This document shows positions 18,127 through 43,960 of a stretch of DNA of 45,174 bases, piece by piece; the stretch's first letter is position 1, and each line of letters begins with the position of its first letter. Origin of the DNA: Patescibacteria group bacterium (lineage in GTDB: Bacteria; Patescibacteriota; Microgenomatia; UBA1400; PJMF01). Location: NCBI GenBank assembly GCA_036381335.1, contig DASVCZ010000010.1, positions 1-45,174 on the forward strand, written 5' to 3'. A program made the translations under genes and the position numbers. The notes below the pieces were generated by a model. That model was not told the origin of the DNA, did no database searches, and saw nothing but the letters and a program-made list of their open reading frames with translations.

Positions 18127-19115
18127 AGGTGTTCCACTTCTACAATTACTTCTTCTGGGTCTTCAGATTTTTCATCAGGCTTTTTAGCTGATTCTTGGTC
18201 CGTATCTTTATCAGGGGTCACGGTTTTAAGGCTGCGTTTAAAGAGTTTGCCAAAGTTGGGTAATTTGAACTGGAGTCGAGGGCGGCTTTTTTTCTCGGGA
18301 GCGGAGGGGGTGGTTTCAGATTCATCATCAGACTCTTCTTTTTTATTCTTGGTTTCAGGTGGTTCGTTGGTCGGCTCGTCTGTCGGTTTGGCTGCTTTGG
18401 ACGTCTCTGCTTCTGCTTTTGCTTTGGACTTTTTACCACCACTTTTCTGACCAGAATCTTCTACCAGCTTACCTCGATCGAGGATCATGTTTCGCTCACC
18501 TTTGAGCATCTCTTTGACCATCACGTCGTGGGTAGTTACCAGTAAGGTGGTGCCGAGTTCGTTAATTTTTTGGAGGAGTTGGACAATTGATTTAGAAGTT
18601 TCTTCATCCAGATTTCCCGTCGGTTCGTCCGCGAAAATAACTTTGGGGGCGGTAGACAGGGCGCGAGCTATACTGACGCGTTGGGCTTCACCACCTGAGA
18701 GTTGCTGGGGGAAGAGGAACGCCTTTTCCGAAAGCCCGGTCAGTTCCAGTAAGTCTGCCACTCGTTGTTCGATTTCTTGTTCATCGGTGTGAATGATCGA
18801 TAGGGCGAGGGCGATATTTTCCCAGACAGTCAGCTCAGGTAAGAGCCGATAATCTTGAAAAACGACGCCGATTTTGCGTCTAATTTGATAGGCTTGGGCA
18901 GACTTGACCGCGCTCAAAGGAGTATCATCAATTGTAATTTCACCTGCCGTAGGCAGGTACTCTTTGGTCATTAACTTCATGAGGGTGGTTTTGCCAGAGC
19001 CCGAGCGGCCAGTGACCAGGACTAACTCCCCGGGTTGGATATCAAAAGAGACGTCTTCCAGGGCTGGTTGAGTGTCAGGGCCAAAATGCTTCGAGACAGA
19101 GTTAAAGATAATCAT
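18123..19115 (-). CDS. ftsE: Cell-division ATP-binding protein FtsE with a K/E/S/T/P-rich C-terminal tail of about 105 aa
   Basis: Walker A GRSGSGKTT, signature LSGGEAQRV and Walker B VIFADEPTGNLD are present. The tail is ...GGKKSKAKAEAETSKAAKPTDEPTNEPPETKNKKEESDDE... Confidence 0.88.
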   Translation of the reverse strand: MIIFNSVSKHFGPDTQPALEDVSFDIQPGELVLVTGRSGSGKTTLMKLMTKEYLPTAGEITIDDTPLSAVKSAQAYQIRRKIGVVFQDYRLLPELTVWENIALALSIIHTDEQEIEQRVADLLELTGLSEKAFLFPQQLSGGEAQRVSIARALSTAPKVIFADEPTGNLDEETSKSIVQLLQKINELGTTLLVTTHDVMVKEMLKGERNMILDRGKLVEDSGQKSGGKKSKAKAEAETSKAAKPTDEPTNEPPETKNKKEESDDESETTPSAPEKKSRPRLQFKLPNFGKLFKRSLKTVTPDKDTDQESAKKPDEKSEDPEEVIVEVEHL

Positions 19116-19195
19116 AATCCAGAACTAATTAAAGCATCATTTGCCTAATCACTTCAAGTGGAAAGTAACAGAAAATTGTGTAATTTTTGCTCGCC

Positions 19196-19231
19196 TTTTG
19201 CCACCTTCTTGCCACCATTGTTGCTTATACT
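19196..19231 (+). promoter_or_regulatory. Conserved 20-mer plus -10-like TATACT (copy 3 of 5), upstream of the KilA-N gene
   Basis: TTTTGCCACCTTCTTGCCAC is at 19196-19215 and TATACT at 19226-19231. The ATG is at 19259, preceded by GAAAGG. Confidence 0.6.
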
Positions 19232-19258
19232 CGATGAAAGTAGAACAGAAAGGTATAT

Positions 19259-35337: not shown

Positions 35338-35460
35338 AAGGCCTTTCTATGTAATGAGCAGAATGAATGGTACTATTTGGGTTTTCTTAGTTCATAGTAC
35401 TTGATTACCTAAGAGATATCAAGTGAACAGAATGAACTAAAGCTCATTACTTATTCCTCG

Positions 35461-35496: not shown

Positions 35497-35541
35497 CGGG
35501 AGCAGTTTTTTGCTAGCTATCTCCTTGGTTTCGTGAAGATA

Positions 35542-35778
35542 TTAACTTGACCCAATTTCTAAGCCTTTAATAGTAGTCAATTGTTGATAGATTTGTTGAA
35601 GTTGCTCGTTACTTGCACTATCGATCATAACCACAAACTTATGAATAGTCCCAGTTGTTAATTCAATATCAAGACAACTTAAGGGTAAATCAGCTAAAGC
35701 TTCGTGAATAGCTCTGATGACTTGCCATTCTGAATCATATTCGCCACCATAGTATTCAACGGGAATTTCGACTGACAT
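35542..35778 (-). CDS. Hypothetical small acidic protein (island-borne)
   Basis: 78-aa ORF at the left edge of the island. I recognised no motif. Confidence 0.4.
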   Translation of the reverse strand: MSVEIPVEYYGGEYDSEWQVIRAIHEALADLPLSCLDIELTTGTIHKFVVMIDSASNEQLQQIYQQLTTIKGLEIGSS

Positions 35779-36021
35779 AGATAACCCTTTCGATTGGTTG
35801 TTACTACGAAGATAGTATCTCGTTGGGAGTGAAATTTCAAATTGTGAAGAAACTTTGTCGAGATACCGAAACTTATCTCGAACTGAGTATACAACGCTTA
35901 TAGACTATCTTGAACCAGTTGATTCTTACTTAAACCAAATAGAGCTTTTCTTAAAAGGACAGTTAGATTTTCCTCAAAAAGACTATGGATTTTTAGTATT
36001 ATGATATGGTAATGTGTAGTT

Positions 36022-36174
36022 ATGTTTCAAAGAAAAGACAATTTTAGCGATTTGATGACTGACTTAACGGACGACTCTGATTCTTATGATTCTGATTCGG
36101 ACTCAGATTATCAGGCTGATGAGGAAGTAGATACTTCTGATGGTGACTCTGTAACTTTAGATTTAAACGATTAG
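36022..36174 (+). CDS. Possible 50-aa, extremely acidic Asp/Ser-rich peptide (not in the ORF track because it is under 60 aa)
   Basis: The ORF runs from ATG 36022 to TAG 36172-36174 and translates to MFQRKDNFSDLMTDLTDDSDSYDSDSDSDYQADEEVDTSDGDSVTLDLND. It is convergent with the nuclease gene, and an AT-rich -10-like TATTAT lies upstream. The RBS is weak. Confidence 0.3.
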   Translation: MFQRKDNFSDLMTDLTDDSDSYDSDSDSDYQADEEVDTSDGDSVTLDLND

Positions 36175-36198
36175 CCTAATATCTCTCGAACTAATATT

Positions 36199-37095
36199 TT
36201 AATCAGTGACTTCGACTCGGGCTAGAGTAGTATCGTCTCTTTTTGTTAGTGAAAAAGTTACTTTTTTATCTTGATATGCAAACGTTGTTTCTGCATGTTT
36301 TGCAATTACGTTTCTGTTATCTGCTGCGTCAGAAAGATATGTAGTATCAAAAACAGCTTCTTCCTGAATCCAGAAACAATGAACTATTGCTTCTATCTTG
36401 TCTATTCGAGCATACTCATTCCCAATCTTAGCGAAAAAACAATCATGAGGATTTGTAAAATTTAGATTAAGTCCCTTTACTACTTTTTCACCTTCTTCCA
36501 CTGAGTCATATACACTCTGAGGAATGTGTTTAGGCAAAAGTTGACCTACAGTTCCCCATAGACTATGGTCATTTTTATAAAGTTTTACTTCATTTATGTT
36601 TTTTTCCTTGGTTTCCTCACGAAACTGTTCTAGTAGATTTTCATGTTGGACATTAAGTAAAACCAAAACTTTTTCAGCTTCAACATTTAAATGTTGAATA
36701 ACCATTACTTTACTCAAAATTACTTGCTCTAAATCATCTGGCAAATGAAGTAAGTTTAATGTTTTTATACCATGCTTTTCAGCCTTTTTAATTGCCCCCT
36801 CACTGAATCCTGTTGAAGAAACAGCAATCACTTTATCAACCACAAGGCTAGCCCTTTTTTGTATTAACTGCTCTATCCAAGTTACATCTTCGTTACCTTC
36901 CCTATCTCTGCACTCTATTGCTATCACGAAGGGATGTGGCTGATTTAAATACCTCACCACAACATCAACCTCACGGTTTTCACCAGTGTCTACATCTTTA
37001 AGGAAACCAGGTGACTCTACCTTTACATCGTCAGTGTTGATAGCACTTTCAATTCTTTTAATTAGTTTTTCAAGATTTCTTCCTTTTCTCGGCAT
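36199..37095 (-). CDS. Mrr-like / PD-(D/E)xK restriction-endonuclease-fold protein with an unknown C-terminal domain
   Basis: The N-terminal 110 aa or so read GRNLEKLIKRIE...REVDVVVRY...FVIAIECRDRE...DKVIAVSSTGFSEGAIKKAEKHGI. This follows the Mrr_cat-type D...(E/Q)xK(R) layout. The start codon lies 2 nt after the HEPN gene stop. Confidence 0.6.
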   Translation of the reverse strand: MPRKGRNLEKLIKRIESAINTDDVKVESPGFLKDVDTGENREVDVVVRYLNQPHPFVIAIECRDREGNEDVTWIEQLIQKRASLVVDKVIAVSSTGFSEGAIKKAEKHGIKTLNLLHLPDDLEQVILSKVMVIQHLNVEAEKVLVLLNVQHENLLEQFREETKEKNINEVKLYKNDHSLWGTVGQLLPKHIPQSVYDSVEEGEKVVKGLNLNFTNPHDCFFAKIGNEYARIDKIEAIVHCFWIQEEAVFDTTYLSDAADNRNVIAKHAETTFAYQDKKVTFSLTKRDDTTLARVEVTD

Positions 37096-37097
37096 AT

Positions 37098-37736
37098 TTA
37101 TGGGTATTCAACTCCAATAACATTTAATAAAAGCTCAGTATTTAATTTACTAGAATCTCTGAGTTGATTAACAGTAATTTCGACAATTTCAGGTAGTCTT
37201 GCGAGTAAGGCATCACAATTAACGACCCAATTTCTCCCATCATTGTCACTATCCTCAAACACTTTGTGCTGTTTGGCGTAATCTAGACTTTCTTGTACTG
37301 AATTCTGAGTTCCTACATCAAAGTTAAAAGTAATTACTTGTTTTCCAGGTTGAACTGTCAAACGATGGGCTAACCAATTTCTAAAACCATTCCAAATTAG
37401 TTGCAAAGCATCACCACTGTCTGGTAATCCTAAATCTAATCCTGATTTTTGAATATTTTTCATAAAGTACAAAAATGATGCTGTTTCATCTTTACAAGAA
37501 CCATCATCTTCAAACTTATCTGGGCGAACAGTGCAGTAGTGAACCTTAGCTAGTAAATTCAGGCAGCTAAATAAGCTTAAAGCAATTACTATGTTACCTC
37601 CACCGATATTCTCTTCTTTGTGTTGCAAACTGTTGTTTCTTATATACACGAATGCTTTTAAATCGTTGAAAACTCCACCAACTCTGTCTTCAATATCATC
37701 AATACATTTTTCAACTACTAGTTTCTGATTTTCCAT
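37098..37736 (-). CDS. HEPN-domain protein (putative RNase) with an R-x4-H motif
   Basis: WNGFRNWLAHRL contains RNWLAH, which fits R-x4-H with Asn at +1, as in many HEPN RNases. The context appears helical. The protein is 212 aa and sits between the orphan large gene and the nuclease gene. Confidence 0.55.
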   Translation of the reverse strand: MENQKLVVEKCIDDIEDRVGGVFNDLKAFVYIRNNSLQHKEENIGGGNIVIALSLFSCLNLLAKVHYCTVRPDKFEDDGSCKDETASFLYFMKNIQKSGLDLGLPDSGDALQLIWNGFRNWLAHRLTVQPGKQVITFNFDVGTQNSVQESLDYAKQHKVFEDSDNDGRNWVVNCDALLARLPEIVEITVNQLRDSSKLNTELLLNVIGVEYP

Positions 37737-37761
37737 ATATTATACTTTCACATTGTCAAGA

Positions 37762-40158
37762 TTATTTTTTATTCTCATGATAAAAACCCACTATATTTTC
37801 ATCTGGTACAAATTCTATTTTTTCACCAGCTTGCATTATTACTAATTTGCTAAGATATGCTTTTTGAGCATCTCTATCACCCTTAGTTTGAAGCCATTCT
37901 GATGGATTTTCAACCCATTTTTCGACAATACCTGGGTTAGTTGCTAGGTCTTTTACTTTAATTCTTAGGTGCTGGAATAAGTAGTCTTCTGCATCTTCTT
38001 CAATTAAAGGATAGTGCTGAACAAATGTTCCTATTTTTCTAAAATCAAAAACAGCAAAGTAGGACGGTTTGCCCTCAATCTGGTAATTGTAAACTTTTAC
38101 TTTCTTTTCTCCCACAATAAACCAACCTTGTAAGTGAGGTTCTTTTTCTTCACCAGTTGGTTCAGTCCAATAAGGTTTAAACTTTTCTTGTTGCTCGAAG
38201 TAGTCAAACATTAAGTCTGTCGAGGCAAATATTACAGTACTTTTTGTAATTCTTATCCTTTCAAGCGCGGTTTCAATGCTAGAATCCTCTGTCACCTCAA
38301 GACTTTTGACAATATCATTCAAGATTACAGAATCTTCACCTTCACCAATGCCTCTACCATAACTTTTACCCCAATCACCGAAATCGACATGCCAATCGTC
38401 AAAGAATATTTCACGCCGCTCCAATTTGTCGTAGCCAATTAACGGTTTTTTAATTATTTTTTTATCTTGAACTCTGTCTTCAAACCGACCAAAAGATTTA
38501 AATTGTTTCCTTAGTTGAGCTGAGTACTTATAACCATCAAATACTTGCTGTTTAAACTCATCTATCCTCTTTTGGCTTAAGTCCTGCTGTTCTTTAAGCT
38601 GCTCAATTTTATCCTCAGCACTTTCCTTGATTTTTTCTAAAAATGGAATTAGTTTTTTATTTACCAACTCTTCACCTGCTTGCTTATCTTCCGCCAAGTC
38701 AAGCTCTTTTAGAATGCCCCAATCAGTAAAGGATTTTGTATTTGCAATTAAACCTTCGAGGAGGAATTTAACATCTGCTAGTTTTTGAGGTTCATTGAAT
38801 GGAATTACATATTCTTCGATGACAGGATACTTTGCTTCGCTAGAGTTTTGTGCGGTGGTAGTGGGATTTGCTTCAGCGTAAGGTTTTTCAGGTTTTAAAT
38901 ACTTTAACAACAGAAGTAAGAAGTATTTATCTTTGTATAAACCAGAATCATGGTGGTCATCCCAAAAAAATGGAAACCTATCAGAAAGTGTTTGAAAGAA
39001 AAACAAAACTGTCTCATTTAATGAAGTAGGATAAATATCATTACCGCCATAAGAAGCTCCTGCATCAGGTGGTTGTTTATACGACCAAATTTGTTTTATA
39101 AAAGATGCTTTTCCTTTGTATACAGCCCAAGCGCCTGCCAAAAACATGACACGCCTTAAGGTGTTATTTGCAAAGCATACTAATACTGCATTCTCTACGT
39201 CATCTTTGACTTTCTTAGCCTTTCTCTTATTTTGTGGATTTAGTTTTGGTCTAACTGCATCGATGTATTCTTGAAAGTCTTTTTTCCATTTTTCGAGCTG
39301 TTCTTGTGTAAGCACTGCTTTACCTTTATCAACAAGTTTTCTTTCCAATTTTGAAATGGAAATTTCATCAGCAAGTTTTCGGTATTCGTCTCGGTCTTGA
39401 GAAAGTAGTAAATCAGAATAATCCCACAGTTTGTCAACTGTGTATGTTGGAACATGAACACCATCGACTATATGACCTATTAACTCTTTAAAAATAACAG
39501 TTTCATTCTCATTTATTAGGTGTTTAATGTTCTCAAGTAAGTATGTGTTAAACAACTCTAAGTATTCCTCATAGAGAAAGCCACCTTTTCTTTTTCTGCC
39601 ATAGTCTTTAAATACAACATGTGTATACCACTCATAAGTGGCGGCTGAACTAGCAGAACTTTTCATCTTCAGCGATTCTCTGGAAAATTTCCATAGCTTT
39701 TTTAAAACTTCTTTGACCAACAATTCTGCTTGCTCCATTTCAGAGACTTTTTCGAGGAAAAAAGCTAATTGATAGCTCGCATGTCTAGTGACTTCTTCGT
39801 TTTCTGTCTTTAGGGATGTTTCAAAAACCCTGATAATCTGTTTGAGAATAAAACTGAAAGAAATCAGATATTTTTCTGGATAGAAACCTAGCCTGAATTG
39901 AGCATCATCTTTATTTTTTTGGAGTAGTGCCCAATATTCTTCGGCAAGCATTAGCTTGTCAAACTTGTCGGGGTCTTTATCTCTTAAATCTAGTAAAGAT
40001 TGAAATAGTTTCCCAATTTTTTGCAAGTCTGGGATAACTTCAGAGTTCCTTTTGTTTTTGGTAAGGAAAACTAGAATATCCCCAAGTCCTTCCAGCGACT
40101 CAATAAAATCTTTTTGCTGTTTTAGTGTTTTTTCAGTCGAAGATTTTTTCTGCTTCAT
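37762..40158 (-). CDS. Large (798 aa from ATG 40158; 811 aa from 40197) orphan protein of unknown function
   Basis: It is a long uninterrupted AT-rich ORF with no Walker A, helicase, methylase, RT or nuclease signature visible. There are K/E-rich helical stretches and a WDDHHDSG cluster. It overlaps the upstream membrane-protein gene by 26 nt. Confidence 0.7.
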   Translation of the reverse strand: MKQKKSSTEKTLKQQKDFIESLEGLGDILVFLTKNKRNSEVIPDLQKIGKLFQSLLDLRDKDPDKFDKLMLAEEYWALLQKNKDDAQFRLGFYPEKYLISFSFILKQIIRVFETSLKTENEEVTRHASYQLAFFLEKVSEMEQAELLVKEVLKKLWKFSRESLKMKSSASSAATYEWYTHVVFKDYGRKRKGGFLYEEYLELFNTYLLENIKHLINENETVIFKELIGHIVDGVHVPTYTVDKLWDYSDLLLSQDRDEYRKLADEISISKLERKLVDKGKAVLTQEQLEKWKKDFQEYIDAVRPKLNPQNKRKAKKVKDDVENAVLVCFANNTLRRVMFLAGAWAVYKGKASFIKQIWSYKQPPDAGASYGGNDIYPTSLNETVLFFFQTLSDRFPFFWDDHHDSGLYKDKYFLLLLLKYLKPEKPYAEANPTTTAQNSSEAKYPVIEEYVIPFNEPQKLADVKFLLEGLIANTKSFTDWGILKELDLAEDKQAGEELVNKKLIPFLEKIKESAEDKIEQLKEQQDLSQKRIDEFKQQVFDGYKYSAQLRKQFKSFGRFEDRVQDKKIIKKPLIGYDKLERREIFFDDWHVDFGDWGKSYGRGIGEGEDSVILNDIVKSLEVTEDSSIETALERIRITKSTVIFASTDLMFDYFEQQEKFKPYWTEPTGEEKEPHLQGWFIVGEKKVKVYNYQIEGKPSYFAVFDFRKIGTFVQHYPLIEEDAEDYLFQHLRIKVKDLATNPGIVEKWVENPSEWLQTKGDRDAQKAYLSKLVIMQAGEKIEFVPDENIVGFYHENKK

Positions 40159-40684
40159 TAAACAGTTGCTCCTTAACAAATGATGGACTACGAACATATT
40201 GAAGAATTAAATTAAAAAACAGGGCAAGTAGAACCATTGAGGCTATTGATAACAAAAAAGAGAATCCAGTTAACAAAAACGACTCAACTTTAAAGAAACT
40301 CAAAAATAGTAAATAAGTGATGTTTAAAAGCAATATGATTGCAAGCGCTCTAAAAAAAGGTTCTTTAATAAACCTGTTCATGATAATCTCAGATTTATAT
40401 CGGTCAGAAATTCTCGAAACTATATCTACTGACAAAGGTAGTAGCAGTGCGAGGATTGCAGTTTGAACTGTTAAGGCATCAGAAATAAAGCCACTGGCTT
40501 TTTCTGGTAGAGACAAATATGAAGGGGTGTCAGCACTTTCCGTTTTTTCAGTACCACTATTTCTATTTTCAATACTAACCTCAGATGTGTTACTGATAAT
40601 TACTCCATTCGAGCCGCCCGCATAAACAGGGCTAACCAGAAACAAAAAAACGGTTAGGATGATAGCAATTGATGTATTTCGCAT
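40133..40684 (-). CDS. Polytopic membrane protein (signal/TM, S/T/N/E-rich exposed segment, then 3 TM)
   Basis: MRNTSIAIILTVFLFLVSPVYAGG is followed by three hydrophobic helices. This is the first cargo gene after the XRE regulator. Confidence 0.6.
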   Translation of the reverse strand: MRNTSIAIILTVFLFLVSPVYAGGSNGVIISNTSEVSIENRNSGTEKTESADTPSYLSLPEKASGFISDALTVQTAILALLLPLSVDIVSRISDRYKSEIIMNRFIKEPFFRALAIILLLNITYLLFLSFFKVESFLLTGFSFLLSIASMVLLALFFNLILQYVRSPSFVKEQLFNEAEKIFD

Positions 40685-40736
40685 TACCTTCGGATTTTAT
40701 ATTGGTAACGCCAAATTATCAAATTGAAGTGGAGAA

Positions 40737-40952
40737 TCAATCAATATCAAAGAGGTCTTTTAGTTTTACCCCTAATGCTTTCGCTATTTTATAGGCAGTT
40801 TTTATAGAAATGTTTCTACCTTGCTCAATATCCCAAAAGTATGCTCTATGTAATCCAGCTTCTTCAGCAAGCTTTTCTTGAGTCAGCCCTTTTTCTTTGC
40901 GTAAGTACTCTATTCGTTCACCAACTCGTTTGTAAAAAAAATTGTAGTTCAT
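40737..40952 (-). CDS. XRE-family helix-turn-helix transcriptional regulator
   Basis: The 71-aa protein contains RIEYLRKEKGLTQEKLAEEAGLHRAYFWDIEQGRNISIKTAYKIAKALGV, the classic HTH_3 pattern. Confidence 0.88.
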   Translation of the reverse strand: MNYNFFYKRVGERIEYLRKEKGLTQEKLAEEAGLHRAYFWDIEQGRNISIKTAYKIAKALGVKLKDLFDID

Positions 40953-41042
40953 CTCTGCTACAGTAGATGATTGTTAGACATTTCTTTACCAGATTTATCT
41001 ATCTTTTTATGCTAAAATTATTGAAACAAAGGAAAATTATTT

Positions 41043-41468
41043 GTGAGTATAAACTCATTCAGAAAGGCAAAAATGTTCTTTAATAAGGATAAAAAAGAAG
41101 TAAACTTACTGTATGAAACTAGCTACATGGGTTCTAACATTAAAGTGTTTCCGAATAAGCTAGTTTTCAAAATGATGGGTATTGAACAATCAATTCCGAT
41201 TGGTCAAATTGCAAGTGTAGAACTAGGCATGCCAATGCTATGGCAAATAGTTGTAGAAACAACAGGAGGCAAGAAGTATAAAATACCCACTCGCAAAAAG
41301 AAGGAAGTGCAACAAGCTATCTATGACGCACAAGCAAGTGTAGGTGCTTCTCAAGGTAGTAGTTCCAGCTTGGCTGATGAACTTGAAAAGTTAAACGATT
41401 TGGTTGAAAAAGGAGTCTTAACAAAAGAAGAATTTGATAAAAAGAAAAAAGAACTACTTAACTCATAA
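41043..41468 (+). CDS. PH-like N-terminal domain + C-terminal SHOCT-domain protein
   Basis: The C-terminal LADELEKLNDLVEKGVLTKEEFDKKKKELL is a SHOCT motif. The track start is a GTG, and ATG M11 is an alternative. Confidence 0.6.
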   Translation: MSINSFRKAKMFFNKDKKEVNLLYETSYMGSNIKVFPNKLVFKMMGIEQSIPIGQIASVELGMPMLWQIVVETTGGKKYKIPTRKKKEVQQAIYDAQASVGASQGSSSSLADELEKLNDLVEKGVLTKEEFDKKKKELLNS

Positions 41469-41512
41469 TTACTCAAGTATTCAACTAGATAAATAGACCT
41501 TATTAAGTCATA

Positions 41513-41932
41513 ATGGGCTTTATGAGGTCATGTAATTACACAAAAGAACTGCTTAATGAGCTGTGTACACATATCGGTGCAGGGCTATCGAATAAAGATG
41601 CAGCTCTGTTAGCTGGCATTTCTGAATCAACTTTTTACCTCTGGCAATCAGATAAAGCAAATAATCCTCTCACAGTTGATGAGAAATTGGAGTTATTGGA
41701 GTCTATAAAAAAGGCAAGACTTGCTAGAAAGAAAAAGTTTATTGGCATAATTGAGAAAGCAGCCGAAACACACTGGCAAGCTGCAGCCTGGTATCTTGAA
41801 CGTGCTTATTTTGAAGAGTTTGGAAAAAAACCGACTGGATACCTGCCGCCCACTAATCAACCTGAAAAAAAGGTCTTTATTCTCCCAAGTAATGGTCGAG
41901 AGAAATTTAACGAACATGCAGTCACAGAATGA
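41513..41932 (+). CDS. Phage-type HTH DNA-binding protein (terminase-small-subunit-like; possible recombination directionality factor)
   Basis: AALLAGISESTFYLWQ is HTH-like. THWQAAAWYLERAYFEEFGKK resembles the (N)WQAAAWWLERR.PE.(Y/F)G motif of TerS-like phage proteins. It overlaps the recombinase start by 17 nt. Confidence 0.5.
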   Translation: MGFMRSCNYTKELLNELCTHIGAGLSNKDAALLAGISESTFYLWQSDKANNPLTVDEKLELLESIKKARLARKKKFIGIIEKAAETHWQAAAWYLERAYFEEFGKKPTGYLPPTNQPEKKVFILPSNGREKFNEHAVTE

Positions 41933-43628
41933 AAAACCAGCAGTTACTATTGAAGACCTCACAGATTTTTTCACAGAGCTTAATGCCTCACCTTACGACA
42001 AGATAGATGAAGCTGACTACAGATATGTGATTTACGCGAGAAAATCCACAAGTGGTGAAGAGCGGCAAGAACGTTCCTTAGCCGACCAAATTGCTGAATG
42101 TAACGCCTATGCACAACGACATGAGTTAAAGGTGGTTGGAGAGCCAATTCAAGAAGCTGAGAGCGCTAAAGAACCAGGAACTAGACCCAAATTTAGAAAA
42201 ATACTTGATGATATAAATGCTGGAAAGTATGAAGGCATTCTTTGCTGGCATCCAGATAGGTTAGCAAGAAACATGAAAGAAGCTGGAGAAATAATTGACT
42301 TGCTTGATAAAAAAATAGTTAAAAACCTTCATTTCGTTTCAATGGCTTTTACTAATGATACAGCTGGTATTACCACCTTAGGAATTTCATTTGTTTTATC
42401 GAAACAGTACTCGGACTCATTAAGTACTAATGTTAAACGCGGTAATCTAAGGAGTGTCATGCAAGGTAAGTGGCTTCATTCTGCTAAGCATGGATATTTA
42501 AAAGATAGAAATCAATTACTAAGACCAGACGGTAATAACTTTCATATCATAAAAGAAGCGTGGATGCTTAGAAACTCAGGCAAAACTCTTCAGTCTATTC
42601 AGAACTACATCAATAGTAATAATTTCACAAAGTCATCTAAAGATAAGCGAGGCAACTTACAACATAAACAATACCTAATGGACAAAAAACGCCTTTCGGA
42701 AATGTTTAGAGACCCCATTTATGCTGGTGTTATGGTTCATGGAAATGATGTGGTGAACCTAAATGAAATCTACGATTTTGAACCAATGGTATCTGCAGAA
42801 GAGTTTGCACATATTAACAAAACTACTGATTTGCATGGTTATCTTAAAAGGAAAGCGAGAGCAAGAAATCCTCAAAAAGTTAAAGCTAATTTGTTGCTTG
42901 GTAAGGTAATTTGTCATAGCTGTAGAGAACCACTATATGCAGGTATCACTGTTAAGAAGAAAAAAGATGGTACTAGAAAGAGTTACTTTTATTATCGATG
43001 TGAAACTTACGATTGTGTGGATAGGAATAAATCTACCAGAGCAAAAGTGGTAATGAACTTTGTTTACGACTTTTTAGATAAACACTCTTTTGATACGAAA
43101 GTAACTTACCAGCATTACTTAGATGAGATGAAGCTAGTGCAAACAAAAAAGCTAGCTGAGCTAAAAAGCACTAAGTCAGCTCTCCTGAATAAAAAACGAC
43201 ACTTAAAAAAGCAAACTGAAGAAATAAGGAAATTCTTATTAACTGAAAAAGAGGAACTAATTAAAAATCAATATCGGCATGACCTTATTGATAAATCGGC
43301 AAAGCTTGATGAAGTTGAAGAGCAACTGGTAATAACTGACAAGGAGTTAGCTAAAAACAAAGTAGGAGTTCACAGCTATAAAAGATTCCTCGAACTTACA
43401 AGTAAATTGCCAAAAGTCCTCAAGAAAACACGTTCTTTGGAGAAAAAAGACTATATTGTCGGAAAAATCTTCTCGAACTTTGTCGTTGATAGAAAAAAAG
43501 TATTGGATTATCAATTAGAAGAGCCATTTGCCACATTTGTGGAAAAGGGACTTTTTTTCCAAGTGTCGGAGAGACAGGACTCGAACCTGCGACCTCGCGC
43601 ACCCCATGCGCGCGTTCTAGCCATCTGA
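41916..43628 (+). CDS. Large serine recombinase (integrase); the last 21 codons or so are antisense to tRNA-Pro
   Basis: The resolvase-type catalytic region is YVIYARKSTSGEERQERSLADQ. There is a recombinase domain, the zinc-ribbon cysteines CHSCREPLYAG...YYRCETYDC, and a long coiled coil. I chose ATG 41916 (MQSQNEKP...) over the track start 41751, which overlaps the previous gene. Confidence 0.85.
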   Translation: MQSQNEKPAVTIEDLTDFFTELNASPYDKIDEADYRYVIYARKSTSGEERQERSLADQIAECNAYAQRHELKVVGEPIQEAESAKEPGTRPKFRKILDDINAGKYEGILCWHPDRLARNMKEAGEIIDLLDKKIVKNLHFVSMAFTNDTAGITTLGISFVLSKQYSDSLSTNVKRGNLRSVMQGKWLHSAKHGYLKDRNQLLRPDGNNFHIIKEAWMLRNSGKTLQSIQNYINSNNFTKSSKDKRGNLQHKQYLMDKKRLSEMFRDPIYAGVMVHGNDVVNLNEIYDFEPMVSAEEFAHINKTTDLHGYLKRKARARNPQKVKANLLLGKVICHSCREPLYAGITVKKKKDGTRKSYFYYRCETYDCVDRNKSTRAKVVMNFVYDFLDKHSFDTKVTYQHYLDEMKLVQTKKLAELKSTKSALLNKKRHLKKQTEEIRKFLLTEKEELIKNQYRHDLIDKSAKLDEVEEQLVITDKELAKNKVGVHSYKRFLELTSKLPKVLKKTRSLEKKDYIVGKIFSNFVVDRKKVLDYQLEEPFATFVEKGLFFQVSERQDSNLRPRAPHARVLAI

Positions 43629-43639
43629 ACTACTCTCCG
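43566..43639 (-). tRNA. tRNA-Pro (anticodon GGG), CCA not encoded
   Basis: The minus strand reads CGGAGAG-TA-GTTC-AGATGGCTA-GAAC-G-CGCGC-ATGGGGT-GCGCG-AGGTC-GCAGG-TTCGAGT-CCTGT-CTCTCCG-A. This is a full cloverleaf with the C1-G72 and A73 typical of bacterial tRNA-Pro. The AUGGGGU loop matches E. coli proL as I recall it. Confidence 0.9.
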
Positions 43640-43697
43640 TAAGGACTTTATTATACCGTTACTCTTCGCAAAGTCGAGCAGAGTGATTTTACTCCCA

Positions 43698-43733
43698 TTT
43701 TGCCACCTTCTTGCCACTTTCCACTAGTATGCT
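43698..43733 (+). promoter_or_regulatory. Conserved 20-mer plus -10-like TATGCT (copy 5 of 5), upstream of tRNA-like ncRNA-2
   Basis: TTTTGCCACCTTCTTGCCAC is at 43698-43717 and TATGCT at 43728-43733. Confidence 0.6.
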
Positions 43734-43739
43734 TGAGAA

Positions 43740-43944
43740 AGAGGTGGGCTCGGCAGGCGCTAGGCAAGTCTGATAAACTAGGCCTACCGGGTTCAATTCC
43801 CGGCGAGTCCACCTCTCTCTCGGATGAATCATATTGACAATAAAAGCGTATAGGCTACAATAAATCTACAGTTTATCAGACTTGCATTACCTAGCGCCTG
43901 TTAGGCAATTCAAATACCATCCTTAAGGGGTGGTTTTTTGTTTT
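43740..43944 (+). ncRNA. Unclassified structured RNA with a tRNA-Ala-like acceptor/T-arm core (paralog 2)
   Basis: The core is 43746-43813. GGGCTCG (43746-43752) pairs with CGAGTCC (43804-43810), giving G3.U70. The T-arm is CCGGG-TTCAATT-CCCGG (43787-43803), followed by A43811 and CC. The internal hairpin is AGGC-G-CTAG/CTAG-GCCT with the 14-nt loop GCAAGTCTGATAAA. Segment 43754-43778 is complementary (11 + 14 bp, with a 5-nt bulge) to 43871-43900. A terminator follows. Confidence 0.6.
43917..43944 (+). terminator. Intrinsic terminator of ncRNA-2 (possibly bidirectional with the convergent GT4 gene)
   Basis: CCATCC-TTAAG-GGGTGG hairpin followed by TTTTTTGTTTT. Confidence 0.7.
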
Positions 43945-43960
43945 CAGATCAGAGATGTTT

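Follow-up and report, generated by a model that had tools for sequence, protein, structure and literature searches.

The forward strand of contig DASVCZ010000010.1 (assembly GCA_036381335.1), a 45,174-nt stretch from a Patescibacteria group bacterium that we refer to as the window, carries at positions 43740 to 43944 a genuine small-RNA gene that is present in two copies on the contig. The copy at 43740 to 43944 is termed noncoding RNA 2 (ncRNA-2) and its paralog at 1468 to 1662 ncRNA-1. Each joins a compact tRNA-like part to a downstream segment complementary to the interior of that part. Neither belongs to the tRNA, transfer-messenger RNA (tmRNA), C4, or mascRNA families, and we infer their function from sequence.

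The tRNA-like part of ncRNA-2, delimited from sequence and fold, occupies 43740 to 43813 (+ strand, as for all ncRNA-2 features) and resembles tRNA-Ala or the tRNA-like domain of tmRNA. A 6-nt leader (43740 to 43745) runs from the predicted start into a 7-bp acceptor in which GGGCUCG (43746 to 43752) pairs with CGAGUCC (43804 to 43810), including G3:U70; A73-C-C (43811 to 43813) follows directly after the acceptor 3′ strand. The 34-nt internal segment between the acceptor 5′ strand and the T-arm holds a central hairpin (43756 to 43783) that replaces the D and anticodon arms, and the T-arm itself (43787 to 43803; CCGGG-UUCAAUU-CCCGG) has the canonical U54-U55-C56-R57-A58 loop. In isolation, the first 70 nt fold at −29.4 kcal/mol into a three-way junction of acceptor, central hairpin, and T-arm. 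The tRNA-Ala identity set is therefore complete, with G3:U70 and A73 on a 7-bp acceptor stacked on the T-arm, and it is invariant in both copies. The acceptor features (G3·U70, A73, and CC) and the T-arm described in the first-pass annotation are present and the same in the two copies. The 14-nt loop of the internal hairpin (GCAAGUCUGAUAAA) was likewise as described, but its stem is 7 bp with one bulged G (GGC-G-CUAG/CUAG-GCC) rather than 4 bp only. An 18-bp extension of the acceptor helix exists in the DNA but would be shorter in the RNA, where it would reach ~13 bp at most in ncRNA-2 and 9 to 11 bp in ncRNA-1, because the predicted starts (~43740, giving the 6-nt leader, and ~1470 to 1472, giving 2 to 4 nt) leave most of it upstream of the transcript.

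Downstream of the tRNA-like part, ncRNA-2 continues with a 56-nt A/U-rich spacer (43814 to 43869) that holds a sigma70-like promoter, a 31-nt anti segment (43870 to 43900; 16 nt and 10 nt of complement with a 5-nt bulge), and a conserved 3′ scaffold (43901 to 43944) consisting of a 16-nt linker, UUAGGCAAUUCAAAUA, and an intrinsic terminator (43917 to 43944; CCAUCC-UUAAG-GGGUGG-U6GU4). The terminator scan that identified the latter found none between the tRNA-like part and the anti segment of either copy. The near-identical terminator stems (CCAUCC/GGGUGG) reported earlier are found in both copies and mark the only two such sites in the window.

That ncRNA-2 is a diverged second copy of one RNA gene, as had been claimed, is borne out by the paralog, which was located by repeat search and direct sequence reading and has its parts in identical order. 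Including its promoter, the ncRNA-1 cassette spans 1417 to 1662 (+; repeats D1 and I13, reading, and folding), with a tRNA-like part at 1474 to 1543 (acceptor GGGGGUG/CACCUCC; T-arm at 1517 to 1533), an anti segment at 1593 to 1618 that pairs with 1481 to 1506, and a terminator at 1634 to 1662 whose stem and U-tract are identical to those of ncRNA-2 (all +). The central hairpin loops measure 10 and 14 nt in the two copies, and there is no D-stem. Compensatory and disruptive substitutions between the copies were counted formally, as the first-pass annotation had proposed, across four local helices (those of leader/trailer, acceptor, T-stem, and terminator) placed in structural register. Sixteen of 24 pairs were unchanged, 7 had two-sided changes, none had a one-sided change, and 1 was broken (an A·C mismatch in one copy), in line with the compensation claimed, for n = 2. 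G3:U70, A73, C74, and C75 are fixed, while acceptor pairs 4 to 6 changed on both sides, and the G·U pairs in the acceptor, T-stem, and terminator are compatible with a plus-strand RNA only. Full-length folds were also more stable than those of shuffled sequences (z = −5.8 for ncRNA-2 and −3.9 for ncRNA-1; 0/200 shuffles as good).

The internal segment of each copy is complementary to its own tail. In ncRNA-2, positions 43754 to 43763 pair with 43891 to 43900 and positions 43764 to 43779 with 43870 to 43885, leaving an AUUAC bulge at 43886 to 43890; all 26 pairs are Watson-Crick, with no G·U. The long-range helix of the first-pass annotation thus stands, while its length of 25 bp does not. The ncRNA-1 helix comprises 6 and 13 bp around a 7×7 internal loop (19/19 pairs). 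The complement in ncRNA-2 covers the post-acceptor stretch together with the central hairpin's 5′ strand and entire loop, and the anti segment reaches the equivalent region in both copies, from position 8/9 through the 3′ end of the apical loop. Duplexes between internal segment and tail had energies of −49.1 kcal/mol in ncRNA-2 (−16.4 ± 3.3 kcal/mol for 2,000 shuffles; z = −9.9) and −35.6 kcal/mol in ncRNA-1 (−15.3 ± 3.2 kcal/mol for shuffles); no shuffle was as low as the observed value in either copy. The 26-nt 5′ arms of the two copies are alike at 4 of 26 positions in register. When the processed tRNA-like RNA was cofolded with the predicted tail RNA, cognate combinations yielded −16.4 kcal/mol (ncRNA-1) and −25.8 kcal/mol (ncRNA-2) and swapped combinations 0.0 kcal/mol, consistent with the earlier statement that each downstream segment matches its own partner only.

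In the unconstrained full-length fold, both the minimum free energy (MFE) and the centroid structures of both copies form the long helix and drop the acceptor. The long-helix fold is more stable than the best structure with an intact tRNA-like part, by 12.7 kcal/mol in ncRNA-1 and 20.9 kcal/mol in ncRNA-2. The two folds should be mutually exclusive on geometric grounds, because the 26-nt arm is the sole strand leading from the acceptor 5′ strand to the T-arm, with a linker of 7 to 10 nt back, and the energy model agrees. A single structure holding both the tRNA-like fold and the long-range pairing, as implied by the first-pass annotation, is not upheld by these results. The same energies would fit one cis-folding RNA whose functional form is a 19- to 26-bp hairpin that loops out the T-arm hairpin and the spacer; the tRNA-like fold would then be a short-lived cotranscriptional intermediate, or a processing or stability signal for RNase P and RNase Z that defines the ends of a 3′ small RNA (sRNA). 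The lack of a terminator between the two parts and the 3′ scaffold being the best-conserved part of the RNA also favor such a molecule, and tRNA-like elements that serve in processing only are known, for example mascRNA, which is the top Rfam match of ncRNA-2. This explanation nevertheless appears unlikely to us: it does not account for G3:U70, A73-CC, and the T-loop being kept amid covarying pairs, nor for a well-placed promoter before the complement, and a seed would be inactive once locked into a 26-bp duplex with the processing signal of the same RNA.

The exact 20-mer TTTTGCCACCTTCTTGCCAC stands upstream of both copies, at 43698 to 43717 for ncRNA-2 and 1429 to 1448 for ncRNA-1. In ncRNA-2 it forms part of an upstream promoter module (43686 to 43733, +) that reads ATTTTACTCCCA-TTTTGCCACCTTCTTGCCAC, 10 nt, and a −10-like TATGCT (43728 to 43733); in ncRNA-1 it is followed by a −10 TACACT (1459 to 1464, +). 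The core TTGCCACCTTCTTGCCAC occurs in five exact copies in the window, and up to two mismatches gave 6 matches versus 0.47 expected. The five module copies (ATTTTGCTCCCnTTTTGCCACCTTCTTGCCACCA-N9-TAnnCTCGAG, ~45 nt), located at 1417 to 1470 (+), 19184 to 19240 (+), 43686 to 43740 (+), 9733 to 9676 (−), and 35506 to 35452 (−), always stand at gene heads, namely those of the two ncRNAs, a KilA-N gene, a lamin-tail-domain (LTD)/VanZ/HU operon, and recA. Their five-way alignment comprises three 7-nt half-sites phased 11 bp apart, 10 nt, and TAnnCT(C/T)GAG, at fixed spacing. A layout of direct-repeat half-sites is that of promoters activated by OmpR/PhoB-type regulators, and, by analogy, the 11-bp phasing of the three half-sites suggests that the module marks a regulon under an activator of this type.

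A second promoter probably lies within each cassette. The ncRNA-2 spacer contains TTGACA-16-TACAAT (43834 to 43861; 11/12 matches), which ends 8 nt before the complement, and 0.03% of spacer shuffles were as good at that position (P = 0.0003). The ncRNA-1 spacer contains TTGTTT-16-TATACT (1558 to 1585), ending 7 nt before the complement (8% of shuffles; P = 0.08), and the two align at the −35 TTG and the −10. In both cases the predicted start falls on the first base(s) of the complement. The neighboring tRNA-Pro gene has a promoter with similar −35 and −10 elements (TCGACT-16-TATAAT), so this promoter type is apparently used in the host. The islands of similarity that the first-pass annotation saw in the spacers are indeed conserved; the spacer alignment assigns them mostly to the probable internal promoter. 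The transcript predicted from it, ~75 nt long, would consist of a single-stranded 5′ complement, a small hairpin, the conserved A/U-rich linker (UUAG...CAAAU), and the terminator, and as modeled this free anti RNA has the usual build of a base-pairing sRNA.

Taken together, we read the cassette as an inducible effector RNA resembling tRNA-Ala or tmRNA that is neutralized by a cognate antisense antidote RNA, a reading to which we assign a probability of about 40%. The first part would be an RNA of ~70 nt that imitates either the tRNA-Ala top half or the tmRNA tRNA-like domain, with no anticodon and no message, and that would be driven by the direct-repeat activator-type promoter common to recA, the KilA-N gene, and the LTD operon. 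The second would be the ~75-nt anti RNA, the first 13 to 16 nt of which can pair perfectly with the central hairpin of the first, along its apical loop and 5′ strand; it would arise as the 3′ tail of the long transcript and most likely also as a separate constitutive transcript from the spacer promoter. Pairing would begin at the open loop and zip into a duplex of 19 to 26 bp. Since this duplex excludes the tRNA-like fold and has a length suited to RNase III, the anti RNA may inactivate or destroy the effector, and only its own partner. Our preferred guess is that the free effector would act as a decoy for factors that handle tRNA-Ala or tmRNA; the machinery of these RNAs is indicated by the retention of G3:U70-A73-CC and by the tmRNA-like traits of ncRNA-1. 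We infer from the DNA the transcription of the effector, its RNase P and 3′-end processing or its alanylation, and the separate transcript of the anti RNA.

A more specific scenario is a long shot: the stress or competence signal that acts on recA would induce alanine-accepting decoys of the tmRNA tRNA-like domain that sequester AlaRS, SmpB, EF-Tu, or RNase P, so that translation rescue slows, with the constitutive antisense of each decoy keeping it off in unstressed cells. The copies would be orthogonal decoys, as their recognition sequences could be swapped freely. In the tisB/IstR-1 system, a stress-inducible effector lies adjacent to a constitutive sRNA of ~75 nt whose 5′ end pairs with it to form a duplex of RNase III size. 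The proposed cassette can be likened to this pairing of an inducible effector with a constitutive sRNA, but the tisB effector is a toxic-peptide mRNA and the two genes are divergent, whereas here there is no peptide and the two RNAs share a strand and a terminator. A type I toxin-antitoxin system was rejected for the window RNAs, neither copy having a conserved or hydrophobic reading frame. Message-less tRNA-like or tmRNA-like small RNAs are already known, though poorly understood; we know of none with its own cognate antisense partner. If the proposed arrangement is real, it would be a compact RNA-versus-RNA switch, wired to the recA promoter, in which the recognition sequence is free to change while the scaffolds stay fixed, and it would offer a natural test of the cellular role of an RNA consisting of a tRNA-like domain only.

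Database searches placed neither RNA in a known family. With ARAGORN and Rfam at gathering thresholds, the sole call near ncRNA-2 was the neighboring tRNA-Pro, and membership of tRNA, tmRNA, or any Rfam family was not detectable for the RNA. An ordinary tRNA (RF00005/ARAGORN) was rejected, with no cloverleaf or D-stem and, at E ≤ 10, tRNA-Sec (17.1 bits) as the only CL00001 match kept over ncRNA-2. A cloverleaf that uses the proximal long-range helix as a split D-stem fits ncRNA-1 but overlaps the central hairpin in ncRNA-2, and was set aside. The best permissive Rfam matches of ncRNA-2, mir-48 and mascRNA, tied at 25.1 bits (thresholds of 69 and 42.5 bits, respectively); the first was taken as a match to a generic hairpin, and the second (mascRNA-menRNA, RF01684; E = 0.009 in a 601-nt search) was rejected for its subthreshold score. 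Like ncRNA-2, mascRNA and its MEN-beta counterpart combine an acceptor and T-arm with one central hairpin and have no D-arm, and mascRNA acts as an RNase P/RNase Z processing signal. Unlike ncRNA-2, it comes from eukaryotes, is located at the 3′ terminus of a long RNA, and is not accompanied by a cognate complement.

The closest resemblance is to tmRNAs that lack a message. In a permissive search, the tmRNA model RF00023 took ncRNA-1 (1474 to 1544) for a tRNA-like domain lacking the 328-nt body and scored it at 21.9 bits versus a threshold of 47 bits; its acceptor (GGGGGUG/CACCUCC), its T-arm, and a UUGGUC at the D-loop position match the model. ncRNA-2 has no D-loop analogue and matched the permuted model solely in the T-loop, at 11.5 bits. 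A true tmRNA, standard or two-piece, was rejected, since there is no tag frame, the gene order does not derive from circular permutation, and the score is below threshold. Message-less forms have been described from mitochondria, plastids, phage DS6A, and two bacterial groups (PMC11915505); among 6,765 Patescibacteria genomes, three are listed as "Standard NoCDS" and ~78% have an ordinary tmRNA (supplementary table 2 of PMC11915505). A molecule consisting of the tRNA-like domain only strongly inhibits tmRNA, perhaps by titrating SmpB (PMC4131195). Our scan of viral contigs, filtered for a closed acceptor, yielded at least four IMG/VR contigs with 64- to 67-nt tmRNA genes reduced to the tRNA-like domain: L043, 4080 to 4146 (+); L074, 3079 to 3143 (+); L112, 3502 to 3565 (+); and L130, 2677 to 2743 (−), scoring 56 to 73 bits against RF00023; they are of the type reported for mycobacteriophage DS6A. 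Like the window RNAs, message-less tmRNAs are ~65 to 70 nt long and have an acceptor with G3:U70 and A73, a tmRNA-type T-arm, and a short hairpin in place of the mRNA/pseudoknot body, and the acceptor of ncRNA-1 is that of L043. Unlike the window RNAs, they keep GGAUUCGAC...GGAC, encode CCA, and have no downstream complement. The window RNAs resemble this class and fall outside it on the GGAUUCGAC D-loop, the GGAC, and the 47-bit score.

These likenesses raise the possibility that the cassette encodes a relative of message-less tmRNA or a nonribosomal alanine donor, in which a product charged by AlaRS would enter stalled ribosomes or feed an alanyl-tRNA-dependent transferase and the complement would tune its level. 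Reading-frame-less tmRNAs of mitochondria and plastids are thought to enter stalled ribosomes. Such molecules are reported from both organelles, from phage DS6A, and from three Patescibacteria genomes (PMC11915505 and its supplementary table 2). The invariance of G3:U70, A73, and CC and the alignment of ncRNA-1 to the tmRNA domain, with its identical acceptor and D-loop-like UUGGUC, would also be accounted for. We regard this explanation as improbable, given the subthreshold tmRNA scores, the missing D-loop analogue of ncRNA-2, and the spacers, which have no conserved reading frame (the candidates AYCF* and AYRLQ* are unrelated). Furthermore, the 45-kb window contains no smpB, alaS, fem, or mprF, and a replacement tmRNA is not needed, because most Patescibacteria genomes have the standard one.

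C4 RNA, to which the P4 CI RNA is a related case, offers a different precedent. In P1 and P7, C4 is cut by RNase P at a GG, closes with a stem formed from its ends, and uses variable loops to pair with a downstream, cotranscribed target; many diverged copies are possible, with antisense sRNAs directed against them (PMC5320573). C4 and the window RNAs have in common an end-closing stem, two hairpins, a variable loop that sets specificity, and a same-strand downstream target. The second hairpin of C4 is a recognition loop where here it is a T-arm, its target precedes a ribosome-binding site and gene, and its host is a proteobacterium or phage. The cassette might accordingly be read as an immunity RNA of the C4/CI type, released by RNase P, whose variable loop represses phage or mobile-element targets off the contig, with the complement as an autoregulatory copy of the target. 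Its topology, with a closing stem that starts with GG and a loop complementary to a same-strand target cotranscribed downstream (26/26 and 19/19 pairs), would fit, as would a specificity loop that varies between copies, the presence of several copies in one genome, the use of the same promoter by a phage-type KilA-N gene, and the position of ncRNA-2 beside an integrated island. On the other hand, C4 (RF01695) was not listed for either locus even at E ≤ 10, what comes after the target is a terminator and a convergent gene rather than the ribosome-binding site of a repressed gene or any open reading frame (ORF), and just one loop of the two can pair with the target. Neither locus lies within the island, ncRNA-1 being located among ribosomal-protein and ABC-transporter genes, and we find such an immunity function quite unlikely.

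Several observations weigh against an effector RNA checked by its own antisense RNA, the reading that we nevertheless prefer. The tmRNA motifs that contact SmpB (UUCGAC...GGAC) are absent from both copies, and phage genes for the tRNA-like domain only score 56 to 73 bits, compared with 21.9 bits for ncRNA-1 and no match for ncRNA-2. The encoded 3′ end is ACC-U/C and not ACCA, and leader:trailer pairing would require removal of the trailer to free the acceptor end. The internal promoter of ncRNA-1 is weak (8/12 matches). Within the window, the anti RNA has only chance-level 9-mer matches elsewhere, with no second target and no downstream gene. With just two copies, both on this contig, and no homolog elsewhere in the collections searched, the covariation rests on n = 2. 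Finally, all 45 long-range pairs are free of G·U, which also fits maintenance at the DNA level.

This last point is the main argument for an element that acts only as DNA, whether as a cruciform or as a site for recombination or inversion (an invertible promoter switch), whose tRNA-like appearance would be a relic of a tRNA or tmRNA gene fragment that island integration left behind. Inverted repeats enclose an internal promoter, and a recombinase of the large-integrase type, a large serine recombinase, lies near ncRNA-2 together with the island border, 100 to 2,000 bp away; both loci also coincide with positions that differ among related genomes. No recombinase is found near ncRNA-1, however, and one independent assembly of the same strain has an identical ncRNA-1 locus in the same orientation. 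Moreover, the diverged copies keep a promoter, an acceptor with compensated two-sided changes, a T-loop, and a terminator on one strand, with strand-specific G·U pairs, and integration relics hold the 3′ part of a tRNA only (as in L008, L010, and L012), which makes a purely DNA-level role very improbable. An integron attC site was likewise rejected, with GTTRRRY-like words after both complements but no matching inverse core, as was a Y-RNA/YrlA, which had no Rfam match and would not end, as this RNA does, at the acceptor instead of an anticodon-equivalent stem.

Pattern scans of genome, metagenome, and viral contig collections recovered no homolog of the cassette. The promoter and T-loop together matched 11 loci in genome contigs, all from other phyla and all either ordinary tRNAs or 3′ fragments of tRNAs where islands end; the 20-nt promoter gave three unrelated matches in metagenome contigs; and three RNA patterns and the 18-nt promoter matched only ordinary tRNAs, a tRNA-Ser-like attachment-site fragment, and coding sequences in viral contigs. 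BLAST against phage records returned T-arm matches only. Relatives were also sought by synteny through the ABC-2 permease, the TreT-like glycosyltransferase, and S9, the nearest S9 proteins being 63 to 68% identical. Judging by the sources named for homologous proteins, the organism is a member of the Microgenomates group within the candidate phyla radiation. Where rpsI and the ABC-2 gene are convergent, the gaps between them (60 nt in L146 and 184 nt in L155) contain no tRNA-like element, and the closest relatives (L018, L019, and L022; 70 to 81% protein identity) are rearranged at both sites and have no such RNA there. A limited literature search turned up no description of such an RNA from the little-studied candidate phyla radiation. 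Present data make the cassette a lineage-specific insertion with two copies within 45 kb, and its general importance may be small, as it was found on this contig only.

The two copies differ in setting. ncRNA-1 immediately follows rplM-rpsI and is convergent with the ABC-2 permease gene; there is no terminator between rpsI and ncRNA-1 (1375 to 1416), and read-through from the ribosomal operon could therefore also produce it. Each ncRNA terminator borders the stop codon of a convergent gene, at distances of 7 and 17 nt (1634 to 1669 and 43917 to 43961), and may be bidirectional. ncRNA-2 neighbors tRNA-Pro(GGG) at 43565 to 43639 (−), at the 3′ end of which a probable integrated island extends over ~35540 to 43640. 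The island encodes an Mrr-like nuclease, an 811-amino-acid (aa) protein and others with no Pfam match, an HTH_3 repressor-like gene, a SHOCT protein, and the large serine recombinase (41751 to 43628), whose reading frame enters the tRNA-Pro gene by ~60 nt on the opposite strand.

Elsewhere, TTGCCAC-N4-TTGCCAC repeats were found 10 to 60 nt upstream of tRNA genes or 3′ fragments in L005 (1600 to 1840, −), L006, L008, L010, L012, L015, and L016, with hosts among the Verrucomicrobiota, Actinomycetota, Pseudomonadota, and Myxococcota. A tRNA-Ser-like 3′ fragment next to a 364-aa ORF lies between two 31-nt copies in L005. These repeats, possibly arm-type integrase sites or −35 boxes, probably have no relation to the promoter of the window.

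Further observations concern the other genes that have the promoter module. The ATG of the LTD-VanZ-HU operon lies 6 nt past the −10, so that its mRNA is probably leaderless, and the motif upstream of the LTD gene is kept in the relative L019 (2502 to 2519). In the related Microgenomates L020/L021, a 218-aa OmpR-type winged-helix protein (Trans_reg_C) is encoded at 18262 to 18918 (+) in a ribosomal-protein/infA/map cluster and is a candidate for the kind of regulator that reads a direct-repeat promoter. The recA leader of ~130 nt (35338 to 35450, −) forms a long imperfect hairpin (−31.6 kcal/mol; z = −2.8) in which GUAAUGAGC...GCUCAUUAC closes UUUAGUUCAU...AUGAACUAAG.

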